This document shows positions 2,253 through 34,887 of a stretch of 64,000 bases of DNA, piece by piece. The first letter of the stretch is position 1. Each line of letters opens with the position of its first letter. The DNA lies in assembly GCF_048403405.1 (NCBI RefSeq), contig NZ_CP183129.1. One strand, written 5' to 3'. Below the pieces are notes generated by a model. That model was given only the letters and a program-made list of their open reading frames with translations. It was not told where the DNA came from and made no database searches. The position numbers and the translations under genes were made by a program. Origin of the DNA: Escherichia coli. Lineage in GTDB: Bacteria > Pseudomonadota > Gammaproteobacteria > Enterobacterales > Enterobacteriaceae.

Positions 2253-2269
2253 GCTCGTTGTTTTTGCCA

Positions 2270-2370
2270 GATGTGGCGTGAACGCCTTATCCGACCTACA
2301 AAATCTTGCAAAATCAACACATTGCAGGAGCGATGTAGGCCTGATAAGCGTAGCGCATCAGGCAACTACG
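2270..2370. repeat. REP (repetitive extragenic palindromic) elements
   Basis: Motifs gcgtgaacgccttatccgacctac and gtaggcctgataagcgtagcgcatcaggc typical of E. coli REP units. Confidence 0.6.
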
Positions 2371-27772: not shown

Positions 27773-29090
27773 TCGCATCGTATCGTTTTTTATATTATGT
27801 CTGGTGTTATGCATCCCCCTATGCGTAGCGTACTTTCACTCTGGTGAACTGATGATGAGGTTCGTTTTCTTCTGGCCGTTTTTTATGTCTATTATGTGGA
27901 TTGTTGGCGGCGTCTATTTCTGGGTCTATCGTGAACGCCACTGGCCGTGGGGAGAAAACGCACCAGCCCCCCAGTTGAAAGATAATCCGTCTATCTCCAT
28001 TATCATTCCCTGTTTTAATGAGGAGAAAAACGTTGAGGAAACCATACACGCCGCTTTAGCACAGCGTTATGAGAACATTGAAGTTATTGCCGTAAATGAC
28101 GGTTCAACAGACAAAACCCGTGCCATCCTGGATCGCATGGCTGCACAAATTCCCCACCTGCGGGTCATTCATCTGGCGCAAAACCAGGGGAAAGCCATTG
28201 CGCTTAAAACCGGAGCTGCCGCGGCGAAAAGTGAATATCTGGTGTGCATTGATGGCGATGCGTTATTAGACCGCGATGCGGCGGCATATATTGTGGAACC
28301 GATGTTGTACAACCCGCGTGTGGGTGCCGTAACCGGTAATCCTCGTATTCGAACACGTTCTACCCTGGTGGGTAAAATTCAGGTTGGCGAGTATTCCTCA
28401 ATTATTGGTTTGATCAAGCGAACCCAGCGTATCTATGGAAACGTATTTACCGTTTCCGGTGTTATTGCCGCATTTCGTCGCAGCGCCCTGGCAGAAGTGG
28501 GTTACTGGAGTGACGATATGATCACCGAAGATATTGATATTAGCTGGAAGCTGCAGTTGAATCAGTGGGCGATTTTTTACGAGCCACGGGCGCTGTGCTG
28601 GATATTAATGCCTGAAACGTTAAAAGGGCTGTGGAAACAGCGCCTGCGCTGGGCTCAGGGCGGTGCAGAAGTATTCCTCAAAAATATGACAAGGTTGTGG
28701 CGCAAAGAAAACTTTCGAATGTGGCCGCTGTTTTTTGAATACTGCCTGACGACAATATGGGCCTTCACTTGCCTGGTCGGTTTCATTATTTACGCAGTCC
28801 AACTTGCCGGTGTACCGTTAAATATTGAATTGACACATATCGCTGCGACACATACTGCCGGAATATTATTGTGTACGTTATGTTTACTGCAATTTATTGT
28901 CAGCCTGATGATCGAGAATCGCTATGAGCATAATCTGACTTCATCGCTTTTCTGGATTATTTGGTTCCCGGTTATTTTCTGGATGCTGAGTCTGGCAACG
29001 ACATTGGTATCATTTACACGAGTCATGTTGATGCCTAAAAAGCAACGCGCCCGTTGGGTAAGTCCCGATCGCGGGATTCTGAGAGGTTAA
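27765..29090 (+). CDS. pgaC: PGA synthase glycosyltransferase PgaC (GT2), 441 aa
   Basis: GT2 motifs incl. DGD and QRLRW (QxxRW); overlaps pgaB by 8 bp. Confidence 0.95.
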
Positions 29091-29091
29091 T

Positions 29092-29505
29092 ATGAACAAT
29101 TTAATTATTACGACCCGACAATCGCCAGTACGTTTAATGGTTGATTATGTTGCCACAACCATCTTATGGACATTATTTGCTTTGTTCATATTCTTATTCG
29201 CAATGGATCTGCTGACGGGTTATTACTGGCAAAGCGAGGCCAGAAGCCGACTTCAGTTCTATTTTTTGCTGGCAGTGGCGAATGCCGTCGTGTTAATTGT
29301 CTGGGCGCTGTACAATAAGCTACGTTTTCAAAAACAGCAGCATCATGCAGCCTACCAATATACGCCGCAAGAATATGCTGAGAGCTTAGCAATACCTGAT
29401 GAGCTCTATCAGCAACTACAAAAAAGCCACAGGATGAGCGTACACTTCACCAGCCAGGGGCAAATAAAAATGGTGGTTTCAGAAAAAGCGCTAGTCCGGG
29501 CGTAA
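29092..29505 (+). CDS. pgaD: PGA synthesis protein PgaD, 137 aa
   Basis: 137-aa two-TMS ORF immediately after pgaC. Confidence 0.92.
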
Positions 29506-29518
29506 ACACCCAAAACAA

Positions 29519-29538
29519 AGCCCGGTTCGCCCGGGCTC
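29519..29538. terminator. Hairpin (agcccgg-ttcg-cccgggct) between convergent pgaD and phoH
   Basis: GC stem; T-run only on minus strand side (tttgttttg), so mainly a phoH terminator. Confidence 0.5.
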
Positions 29539-29554
29539 TGCGCCGATAATACAC

Positions 29555-30619
29555 TTAACTGTATGCATGTAGCGTACGTTGGCAAAGTGCCGAACGTACG
29601 CAATCCTCTTTACCGAATCGGACGATCCCGACCATTTCATCTTCTTCGAAACGTTCCAGCGCGTCACTTAATCCGGAGCGCACGCCGCGAGGCAAATCGC
29701 ATTGCGTGATATCACCGTTGACGATAACCGTCACGTTCTCCCCGAGGCGGGTTAAAAACATTTTCATTTGCGCGGCAGTCACATTCTGCGCCTCGTCAAG
29801 AATGACGACTGCATTTTCAAAGGTACGTCCACGCATATAGGCGAACGGCGCAATTTCCACCTTCCCTATTTCCGGTCGCAGGCAGTACTGCATAAAGGAA
29901 GCCCCTAAGCGCCGGACCAGCACGTCGTAGACCGGACGAAAATAGGGAGCAAACTTTTCTGCGATATCTCCAGGTAAGAAGCCAAGATCTTCATCGGCTT
30001 GCAGAACTGGACGGGTGACGATAATCCTGTCGACATCCTTATGTATCAGGGCCTCTGCCGCTTTTGCTGCGCTGATCCAGGTTTTTCCGCACCCGGCTTC
30101 GCCCGTGGCGAATATCAGCTGCTTACTCTCAATAGCCTTCAGATAGTGCAATTGCGCTTCATTTCGCGCGAGGATGGGCGAGGTATCGCGACTGTCGCGG
30201 GCCATACCAATGGCTTCTACGCCGCTCATCTGCACAAGCGAGGTGACCGATTCTTCTTCACGCTGCTTATGGCTGCGCGAATCCCGTCTCAGCACACGTT
30301 TTGCCTCGCGACGAGCTTTGATCACTGCTTTTTGTCTTCCCATGGAGAGCACCTTGAGTTGTTTGTATTCATCACACGCGCCGTTGGCAGCGCGATTATG
30401 CGCACGAACATCAGAGGGTTGGCTTCCTTGTAAGCCATAGTTTGCTTTTGGATAAAATGCCGAAAAACGGCTACGCGCACCGTTTACGGCGTCGGTAACA
30501 CATGAAAAGAAAGGATGAGGTTGAAAATACAAAGTGACGAGATGACTACCGGAGGAGAAATCTCCGCGAGTGGTGGCGCGCTGATTATCTAAAACATGTC
30601 CAGTACAGGACGTTACCAT
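29555..30619 (-). CDS. phoH: PhoH, phosphate-starvation-inducible ATPase (long form), 354 aa
   Basis: Walker A GEAGCGKT, PhoH-like C-terminal domain; 354 aa. Confidence 0.92.
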   Translation of the reverse strand: MVTSCTGHVLDNQRATTRGDFSSGSHLVTLYFQPHPFFSCVTDAVNGARSRFSAFYPKANYGLQGSQPSDVRAHNRAANGACDEYKQLKVLSMGRQKAVIKARREAKRVLRRDSRSHKQREEESVTSLVQMSGVEAIGMARDSRDTSPILARNEAQLHYLKAIESKQLIFATGEAGCGKTWISAAKAAEALIHKDVDRIIVTRPVLQADEDLGFLPGDIAEKFAPYFRPVYDVLVRRLGASFMQYCLRPEIGKVEIAPFAYMRGRTFENAVVILDEAQNVTAAQMKMFLTRLGENVTVIVNGDITQCDLPRGVRSGLSDALERFEEDEMVGIVRFGKEDCVRSALCQRTLHAYS

Positions 30620-30768
30620 CCGCGATCTCCATAGTGACTGACTATCACTGCCGGGAACTTCCGCTGCTACTTAATAATTACAACAGAACTCGCATTCATT
30701 GCAACAATATATTCACTTATATTTAACGATAAACACCCATTTCGGTGACATTAGTTTCTACTGGAAAG

Positions 30769-30786
30769 ATGACAGAGTGATGACAG
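30769..30786 (-). promoter_or_regulatory. Pho box (PhoB binding site) upstream of phoH
   Basis: Minus-strand sequence CTGTCAT-CACT-CTGTCAT: two 7-bp direct repeats with 4-bp spacer, the PhoB consensus architecture. Confidence 0.75.
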
Positions 30787-30837
30787 AGATGAAAAAAGCT
30801 GTGTGCTTTCAGCAGGATTCGCAGTACTGGTAAAAGC

Positions 30838-30875
30838 TTGCCGGATGCGGCGTGAACGCCTTACCCGACCTACAA
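30838..30875. repeat. REP element
   Basis: gccggatgcggcgtgaacgccttacccgacctac matches E. coli REP consensus. Confidence 0.6.
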
Positions 30876-30941
30876 GTGATTAATAATTTGTGCACCAAAC
30901 TCATGCCCGATAAACCTGCGCATCGGGCATATTTGCGTCGT

Positions 30942-32213
30942 TCAAACCTGTAATAGCGCCCTTCCCAGATAATCGTTCGTGTCCTTCACCCCCGGCAGCG
31001 CAAAAAAATAACCGCCGCCGATAGGTTTAACGTATTCCTCCAGCGCTTCGCCATTGAGCCTTTTTTGTACTGTCAGGAAGCCTTTTTCCAGATCGTGTTG
31101 GTAACAGACAAACAATAGCCCCATATCCAGTTGTCCGGAGTTGGTGACGCCCAACGAATAACTGTAGCCACGACGCAGCATCAGGCTGGACTCACTCTCT
31201 GGCGTGCGGGGATTCGCCAGCCGGATATGGCTGTCCAGCGCAATCACCTTCCCCTCCGGATCGCTGGCGTAATCGGGAACATCATGCTCATGCTGCATTC
31301 CCAGCGGCGCACCGGTTTGTTTGTCGCGACCAAAAATCGTCTGCTGTTCTTTCAGTGGCGTTCTGTCCCAAAACTCCACCCGAAACTGAATCAACCGCAC
31401 CGCCTGGTAGCTGCCGCCGATTGTCCACGCAGGCTCCTGCTGATCTGCCGTCACCCACACCACTTGTTGCATCAACTTATCATTCTGGCTATCGGGATTG
31501 GCAGTGCCGTCTTTGAAACCCAGCAAATTAATCGGCGTCTCTTTGCCTTTACTACGCGCTGCATGATCGGAAATAAACCCTTCCCGCTTCCAGCGCACGC
31601 TGAGCAAATCCGGCGTGTGTTTGATGATATCGCGCAGCGCATGGATCACCGTGTCCTGGGTGTTGGCGCAAATTTGTAGCAACACATCACCATGACATAA
31701 CGCCGCATCCAGCGAGTCGTTGGGGAAACGCGTCATTTTCTGCAACTTTTTCGGCATCTGCGGTGTAAGGCCAAACCGCTCATCAAACAATGAGTGGCCC
31801 ACCGATAACGTTATGGTGAGATTATCGGACGCAATGTAGCCGCCAAGAATGCCGGAATCGAGTGGAGGCAGGCGCGGATTTGGCGTTTCTGGTGCCGCTC
31901 CGCCCTGAGTCAGAAAAGCAAAACGCTGAGTCAACAAGCGAAACAACCGTTCAAGATCGGCTTTATCGCTGGCAAGCACATCAAACGCCACCAGCATCAT
32001 TGCGGCCTGTTGTGGCGTCAGGACCCCTGCCTGATGCTCACCATAAAACGGCTGTTTCTCATTGCGTGCATCCGGTGAAAGCGTTCCCGGTGCACTTTGC
32101 GTTTTTTGTGCATGAGCGACCGGACAACTTCCCGCCAGCGCCAGCGCACCAATCCCTTTCAGTAAACGTCGGCGTGACGGTTCATTCACGCCGTTTTCAT
32201 CTTCATACTGCAT
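30942..32213 (-). CDS. efeB: Dye-decolorizing (DyP) haem peroxidase EfeB (YcdB), Tat-secreted, 423 aa
   Basis: Twin-arginine signal [17 protein letters not shown]; 423 aa. Confidence 0.93.
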
Positions 32214-32218
32214 AACAC

Positions 32219-33346
32219 TTAATCCAGTCCCAGCACACCGCGAAGTTGCGCCAGATCTTCCGCCAGCGCAGTAATCGGCCCTTTCAGCGCGTTACGGTCG
32301 GCATCGGTCAATTTGTCGTAGGTTTCAAAACCGTCTTTAGTACGGTATTTCGCCAGAATGGTATCGACCTTTTTGAAGTTGGCATCGACTTTTGCCAGCA
32401 GTTCCGGGTTGGCTTTTTGTAGTTGTGGACGCAGCAGATCGACAATTTTCTGCGAGCCTTCAACGTTAGCCTGGAAATCCCACAGATCGGTGTGGCTGTA
32501 GCGATCTTCTTCACCGCTGATTTTGCTGGCTGCCACTTCCTCAATCAGTCCGGCTGCACCGCCGACCACTTTTGAAGGTGGGAAAGCCAGTTCACTGATG
32601 CGTTTTTGCAAATCGACCACATCGGTATAAAGCTGGTCAGCGTACTTATCCATCCCTTTAGTGGTGTTATCGCCAAACAATGCTTTTTCCAGACGGTGGA
32701 AACCGGTGAATTTTGGATCGGCGGCTTTTTGCTCGTAATCATCTTCACGGGCGTCAATGCTACCATCCAGATCGGAGAACAGTTCAGCAATCGGTTCAAT
32801 GCGCTCATAGTGCTGGCGCGTCGGCGCATACAGTGCTTTCGCTTTTTCGATATCGCCTGCTTTAATCGCGTCGGTAAAGGCTTTGGTGTCGGTCACCAGC
32901 TGTGTGGTTTCCGCCATGACATACGCTTTATATGCAGTAATTGCACCACCAAGACTTAACAGCGCATCACTTTGCGCCGCATCCGCCGTTGCCTCACCTT
33001 TGACGATCAACTTCCCTTTCGGGTTAGTCAGCAGACCGCAGGTCATATCGTATTCGCCAGGCTGTAAATTCGCCGTCATTTTCTGGCTAAAACCAGGGGC
33101 GATATTTTCCCGCTCTTCCACCACCATCACGCCTTTGAGGATCTCCCACTCCAGCGCCTTCTGGCTGTGGTTCTGAATAATGAACTGTGTTTTCCCGGCG
33201 TTAACCGTAATGGTCATCGGTTCGCACTGTTTATCTGTCACAGTGACTTTGACCTGCGGAATATCAGCGGCGTTAGCCATAAAAGCAGAAGAGAACAGCG
33301 CAGCCACGCTAAACTGCAATGCGTTACGGCGGAAGTTAATGGTCAT
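32219..33346 (-). CDS. efeO: Periplasmic iron-binding protein EfeO (YcdO), 375 aa
   Basis: 375-aa ORF with signal peptide; cupredoxin + M75 peptidase-like domains by recall. Confidence 0.93.
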
Positions 33347-34302: not shown

Positions 34303-34887
34303 TATCATTACGGCAAAGAAAAATACAAGCGGAATGTTTATAAAATGATGTTGGAATGTAAACAAAGAGAGGTAATGCCAGGGGATATAAACAATTATTC
34401 CAGGTACAAAGATGGGATTGTTTACAACGAGCCATGTGTTCTTGCCAGATGCCGCGTAAACGCCTTATCCAGCCGACAAAACTGTCCAGACTCAATGCAT
34501 CAGAGCTTCCATGTAAAACTGATAAGCGGGTGTATCAAGCAATTTCGTCCATCCGCGATTATCAAATCTAACTTTTTGCCCGGAACATAATAACAGCTCG
34601 GGTGTTGGTGGCGTCAAAGTCGCTGAAGCGTTCCCCGAAGGCCGGGGCAGCCCACATGGATGTGGGCTGAGGGCGCGTCTTACAGGACATTACCTCGCGC
34701 CCGACCCGGTAGCCGAAGGGGATAAGCTGAAGGTACCGCGCAGCGGCGATTTTGTTCGCCAGAGCCCGGGGTGCAGGGGGTGGCGGCGATTGGCCGCCCC
34801 CTGCACCATTCAATTTATATGGCGAGGCACATTAAGGGAGCGCAACCCGCTGCTGAAGCCAAACAAAACCGCCGCAGGCTAAGTCCC

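Follow-up and report, generated by a model that had tools for sequence, protein, structure and literature searches.

Canonical Pho boxes, as found at pstS, phoA and phoB of Escherichia coli (consensus CTGTCATA(A/T)A(A/T)CTGTCA(C/T)), consist of two heptamers that are spaced by 11 bp, run along the direction of transcription and sit in the place of the -35 element. For this family it is established that a PhoB~P dimer replaces the -35 element and recruits sigma-70 RNA polymerase, and at the pstS, phoA and phoB promoters the spacing from the box to the -10 element is 10 bp. In K-12, phoH has a promoter with such a box, P1 (Kim et al. 1993), and a second promoter, P2, that is PhoB-independent (Kim et al. 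1993 as cited in Park et al. 2013, PMC3798270). In MG1655, PhoB ChIP-seq gave a peak at 1084845 that was assigned to phoH, with a ChIP score of 11 and the site TGTCATCACTCTGTCATC (Fitzgerald et al. 2023, PMC10294691). The same study lists phoH as one of seven classical pho operons with significant positive regulation by PhoB. Levels of phoH RNA fell significantly, from 37,076 in the wild type to 13,375 when phoB was deleted, and sigma-70 occupancy at the phoH site was more than 2-fold lower in the deletion in hns+ cells (PMC10294691). The main text of an earlier ChIP-chip paper (Yang et al. 2012) does not mention phoH.

ArcA-P also acts on phoH. Its footprint covers 60 bp (-80 to -21) and overlaps P2, and the site, ATGTCAC...TTGCAAT at 1084083-1084136, is made up of one distal and three consecutive repeats (Park et al. 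2013, PMC3798270). ArcA represses phoH 25.3-fold, for which the authors propose a mechanism of occlusion (PMC3798270).

We examined the corresponding region in another E. coli strain, within a window of 64,000 nucleotides (the whole stretch of DNA analysed). The gene order is efeU, efeO, efeB and phoH, followed by the convergent genes pgaD, pgaC and pgaB. Positions 30620-30941 exactly fill the space from the efeB stop codon to the ATG of the long form of phoH, and the features of this gap are collected in Table 1. As an earlier note on this DNA had claimed from its letters, the gap holds CTGTCAT-CACT-CTGTCAT on the minus strand at 30769-30786, and both the letters and the coordinates are correct. 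This element is the phoH P1 Pho box itself, in another E. coli strain, and as such belongs to known, textbook biology. For the region as a whole, the best explanation, and one that we regard as almost certainly right, is a P1 Pho box activated by PhoB~P, accompanied by P2, by the ArcA-P operator and by a REP unit and a hairpin that belong to the end of efeUOB.

Table 1. Features of the efeB-phoH intergenic region and its flanking genes, in window coordinates.
Feature	Coordinates	Strand	Remarks and basis
efeB (Dyp-type deferrochelatase/peroxidase)	30942..32213	minus	423 aa; last gene of efeUOB; stop TGA 30942-30944
Single-copy hairpin ATGCCCGAT-GCGCAGGTTT-ATCGGGCAT	30903..30930	minus	starts 11 nt past the efeB stop; fold, alignments
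Y-type REP unit GCCGGATGCGGCGTGAACGCCTTACCCGACCTAC	30840..30873	plus	inverted relative to efeB/phoH transcription; consensus match, fold
Pho box (CTGTCAT-CACT-CTGTCAT, then C)	30768..30786	minus	PhoB~P dimer site, P1; sequence, PWM, ChIP-seq identity
Candidate P1 -10 hexamer GAAACT	30753..30758	minus	10 bp past the box; weak; predicted
ArcA-P operator	30698..30751	minus	54 bp; site of Park et al. 2013 placed by sequence and coordinates
P2 (TTGCAA ... TGTTGTAATTATTAAG)	~30665..30704	minus	position approximate; from ArcA footprint coordinates
Shine-Dalgarno GGAG, 7-nt spacer and long-form phoH ATG	30617..30630	minus	sequence
phoH long ORF	29555..30619	minus	354 aa

The efeB product carries the Pfam domains Dyp_perox_N and Dyp_perox_C, and its last codons and stop differ from those of K-12 (TGA here vs TAA). 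The phoH product matches Pfam PhoH PF02562 at residues 149-353 (E = 1e-76). In the window-identical strain, efeU is annotated as intact (L001 1-557), and in K-12 MG1655 as a frameshifted pseudogene (L002 1-452). A full-length Rfam match to Ysr251, a Yersinia antisense sRNA, lies at 29560-29753 on the plus strand (192.8 bits, E = 1e-53), antisense to the phoH 3' end and just downstream of the convergent pgaD; this match may simply mirror the conservation of phoH coding sequence.

The distance between the box and phoH depends on which start codon is used. The 3' end of the box (30769) lies 150 bp from the long-form ATG at 30619, exactly the spacing that the earlier note had given as approximate. 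RefSeq/PGAP annotates only a short phoH of 262 aa (29555-30343), whose start at 30343 is 426 bp from the box, and this choice of start makes the promoter look oddly distant. The long ORF nonetheless has a good Shine-Dalgarno sequence (GGAG), and its 92-codon extension differs from that of K-12 by three substitutions, one synonymous and two non-synonymous. The PhoH protein purified by Kim and colleagues in 1993 was reportedly ~39 kDa, which agrees with the long form.

Read from 30786 to 30769 on the minus strand, the box is CTGTCATCACTCTGTCAT (plus strand 30769-30786, ATGACAGAGTGATGACAG). Its heptamers are both perfect CTGTCAT and match the canonical Pho consensus without exception; they form direct repeats 11 bp apart, centre to centre, and are oriented along phoH transcription. 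The spacer CACT is A/T at two of four positions and is thus less A/T-rich than the consensus; "near-perfect" in the earlier note stands for two perfect heptamers with this mixed spacer between them. Mixed spacers of this kind also occur in several sites bound by PhoB in vivo (Table 1 of Fitzgerald et al. 2023, PMC10294691). A possible third half-site upstream, TTTTCAT at 30789-30795, was rejected because it is out of register, being 9 bp rather than 11 bp from the first heptamer. A downstream candidate, TGTCAC at 30745-30750, is likewise out of register, lying 24 bp past the second heptamer, and corresponds to repeat DR-1 of the ArcA operator.

The match to PhoB sites is highly improbable by chance. 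When the 64-kb window was searched with CTGTCATNNNNCTGTCAT, allowing up to three mismatches, 10 matches were obtained, of which the Pho box had no mismatches and the other nine all had three. By simple arithmetic, an exact match of the 14 specified bases is expected ∼5e-4 times in 128,000 positions. We also carried out the PWM scan that the earlier note had proposed as a check, using a leave-one-out matrix built from 58 published PhoB ChIP-seq sites (Table 1 of Fitzgerald et al. 2023) from which phoH was excluded. The box scores 18.55 bits; among 200 shuffled versions of the window, a single one reaches this value. Scores of the training sites lie between 6.55 and 23.19 bits (median 14.98), and no more than five of these sites score as high, which would place the phoH box sixth among 59 published sites. 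Within the window it ranks second. The top PWM match is AGTCATATTTCTGTCACA at 49978-49995 on the minus strand, itself a member of the training set: its letters are those of the published agp ChIP-seq site, and it is located 37-54 bp upstream of the start of agp. Published levels of agp RNA go up, not down, when phoB is deleted.

The published phoH site is identical, letter for letter, to window positions 30785 to 30768. The control of phoH by phosphate starvation that the earlier note had proposed is therefore backed in MG1655 by ChIP-seq identity, by PhoB-dependent RNA and by sigma-70 occupancy, and the possibility that transcription is independent of the site is contradicted for P1 by the same published data. 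Given the identity of the site, this function would carry over from MG1655 to the present strain.

The flanking genes, the 18-bp box, the next 24 bp and the distance to phoH are the same as at K-12 P1 (Kim et al. 1993; ChIP-seq peak 1084845). The differences are one base directly 5' of the box (CT here, CA in K-12), a few substitutions in the ArcA operator, and the efeB side, where a single-copy hairpin stands in place of the Z-type REP of K-12. Over the 401 bp that surround the site, E. coli O169:H41 strain Res13-Lact-PER13-34 matches with 100% identity. Relative to the canonical Pho boxes, phoH has a single box (pstS has two) with a spacer that is only half A/T. Induction by PhoB is modest, ∼2.8-fold for phoH RNA, compared with hundreds-fold for pstS and phoA (PMC10294691), a weakness that we attribute to the constitutive second promoter downstream.

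The box is also far better conserved than the DNA around it. Among 5,426 complete E. coli genomes, 5,213 carry an exact copy of the 42-bp core that includes the box and 117 more carry it at 95-99% identity, whereas the best match to the full 401-bp query is only 90-95% identical in most genomes (4,455 records). By these two queries, the Pho box is more conserved than the intergenic DNA that flanks it. The stretch CTGTCATCACTCTGTCATCTTTCCAGTAGAAACTAATGTCAC is unchanged in all aligned strains (MG1655, a UPEC strain, O157:H7 and two others), and Escherichia sp. E1V33 and strain E69 retain the full box despite diverged flanks. An exact 19-mer scan of species-representative genomes, which is blind to diverged sites, returned two Escherichia, one Tatumella and four hits in unrelated taxa, with ∼2 expected by chance (arithmetic). 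The Tatumella morbirosei hit, CTGTCATCACTCTGTCATC, is an exact 19-mer at L007 2780-2798 that lies in intergenic DNA 28 bp past a 249-aa ORF, in a locus whose end truncates the downstream gene. According to Fitzgerald et al. 2023 (PMC10294691), conservation of the phoH PhoB site extends to a limited group of gammaproteobacteria.

These features suggest how the promoter region would work. Under phosphate limitation, a head-to-tail dimer of PhoB~P would occupy the two 11-bp units; the box would stand in for the -35 element, and PhoB would recruit sigma-70 RNA polymerase, a mechanism that the published sigma-70 data support for phoH. With the 10-bp spacing of pstS, phoA and phoB, the -10 hexamer would be GAAACT and the P1 start is predicted near 30746, ∼23 bp past the box, giving an mRNA with a leader of ∼125 nt before the long-form ATG. 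Besides the -10 hexamer given in Table 1, TAGAAA (30755-30760) and ACTAAT (30750-30755) are alternative candidates. A sigma-70 consensus scan around phoH detected no promoter-like site, and at P1 this is expected because an activator-dependent promoter lacks a -35 element. P2 would lie ∼70 bp further downstream, with a start near 30674 as judged from the published ArcA footprint coordinates (-80 to -21), and it gives basal, PhoB-independent expression. The phoH expression that remains in the phoB deletion fits such a promoter.

Starting 17 bp past the Pho box, the ArcA-P operator extends over the predicted start of P1 and into the upstream portion of P2, and through it ArcA-P would repress phoH anaerobically. 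Its repeats are located at ∼30748 (DR-1) and at ∼30726, 30715 and 30704 (DR1-DR3). Like the multi-repeat ArcA-P operators described by Park et al. 2013, it has three consecutive repeats and a distal one ∼22 bp away, positioned over promoter elements. It differs from the K-12 operator at 7 of 54 positions, including positions in DR1 and DR2. Bound there, ArcA-P would cover the predicted start of P1 together with the upstream half of P2, in line with the occlusion model.

The region between the box and efeB has a different character. The REP unit that the earlier note had placed upstream of the Pho box, toward efeB, is real: over 34 bp it has two mismatches to the Y-type REP consensus used in our search, with 0 matches expected by chance, and it folds into a stable hairpin (-18 kcal/mol, z = -3.4). 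It is intergenic and lies 54 bp upstream of the box. The unit gives a partial Rfam match, well below threshold, to the REP-derived naRNA4, and an Rfam scan of 29000-32500 revealed no regulatory RNA in the intergenic region beyond this partial match. REP sequences are dispersed, as a genome search returned more places than records, with some matches consisting of the REP core alone. Further REP-like units occur in the window at 2266-2299 (plus strand, three mismatches to the 34-bp consensus) and at 34444-34467 (plus strand, two mismatches to the 24-bp core). As with other REP/BIME palindromes of E. coli, the unit is thus extragenic, follows the convergent-free end of an operon and has several copies in the window.

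The second hairpin on this side, at 30903-30930, has a 9-bp stem (-17.7 kcal/mol, z = -3.0). We considered whether it is also a dispersed repeat, a reading that is ruled out by its single copy per genome: the 72-bp segment that contains it (30874-30945) is a minority allele, present in 245 of the 5,426 complete genomes of E. coli, with one copy each and always at this locus. Most strains carry a Z-type REP in place of this segment, and K-12 has a pair of oppositely oriented REP units, which we take to be first a Z-type and then an inverted Y-type. The REP of the window therefore stands alone where K-12 has a Z-type/Y-type pair, and its outer stem has two substitutions. Among E. coli strains, the REP/hairpin block exists in three or more arrangements. 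A BIME, which needs at least two alternating REPs, is excluded for the window, where there is one canonical REP and the second hairpin is single-copy. Nor does the block hold a canonical intrinsic terminator of efeB. Neither hairpin has a T tract, and the hairpin at 30903-30930 was not called terminator-like because it lacks a run of T; a terminator scan of 30400-31100 on the minus strand found no terminator-like site, the sole such site being inside phoH on the other strand. Because the efeB side varies and the box is fixed, we read the REP as an ordinary palindrome of the efeUOB 3' end rather than a component of the phoH promoter. The REP and the hairpin are generic palindromes that lie where the efeUOB transcript ends and probably terminate or protect it.

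REP/BIME elements can serve as binding sites for IHF, gyrase or Pol I. With a REP only 54 bp from the box, one could imagine a composite element in which proteins bound to the REP, or the structure of its DNA, modulate PhoB activation of P1. We consider this very unlikely, as the REP side is highly polymorphic among strains when the box is invariant, the allele in the window has one canonical REP and hence is no BIME, and no link between REP and phoH control was found in the literature searched. An effect on readthrough is speculative and also unlikely: REP/hairpin alleles without a canonical terminator could set the amount of transcription that reaches phoH from the efeUOB operon, itself regulated by iron and acid. 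Were this true, phoH would be tied to iron status in an allele-dependent manner, on top of its control by PhoB and ArcA.

Two other readings concern the box itself. ArcA and PhoB boxes have the 11-bp spacing in common and are similar in composition (PMC3798270), and the ArcA operator begins close by, such that the box might be a chance direct repeat or a site for ArcA or another OmpR-family regulator. However, the footprinted ArcA site starts at ATGTCAC (30751) and leaves the box outside, PhoB occupancy in vivo has been published for this exact sequence (PMC10294691), and chance is excluded by the mismatch search and the PWM shuffles, leaving this explanation with a negligible probability. It is also conceivable that PhoB binds the box without transcriptional consequence and that phoH is driven by P2 only. 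Most PhoB ChIP-seq sites have no detectable regulatory effect, deletion of phoB leaves phoH with roughly a third of its RNA, and in an hns-deletion background the difference in sigma-70 occupancy at the phoH site was not detected, with none above 1.5-fold (PMC10294691). Nonetheless, the inert sites are mostly intragenic, whereas the phoH box is intergenic, correctly oriented and upstream of its gene; the operon is one of the seven that PhoB activates significantly, with the loss of sigma-70 occupancy in hns+ cells noted above; and the box clearly surpasses its flanks in conservation. An inert box is thus highly improbable, and PhoB-activated P1 remains the preferred reading.

Three published layers of control lie within a stretch of ∼120 bp in this strain's phoH upstream region: PhoB at P1, ArcA-P across P1 and P2, and constitutive P2. 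Confirmation of the Pho box demonstrates that a real regulatory site can be recognized from sequence alone, with little significance beyond annotation. In the species, the REP side of the intergenic region is a hotspot of allelic turnover that has left the phoH promoter untouched.
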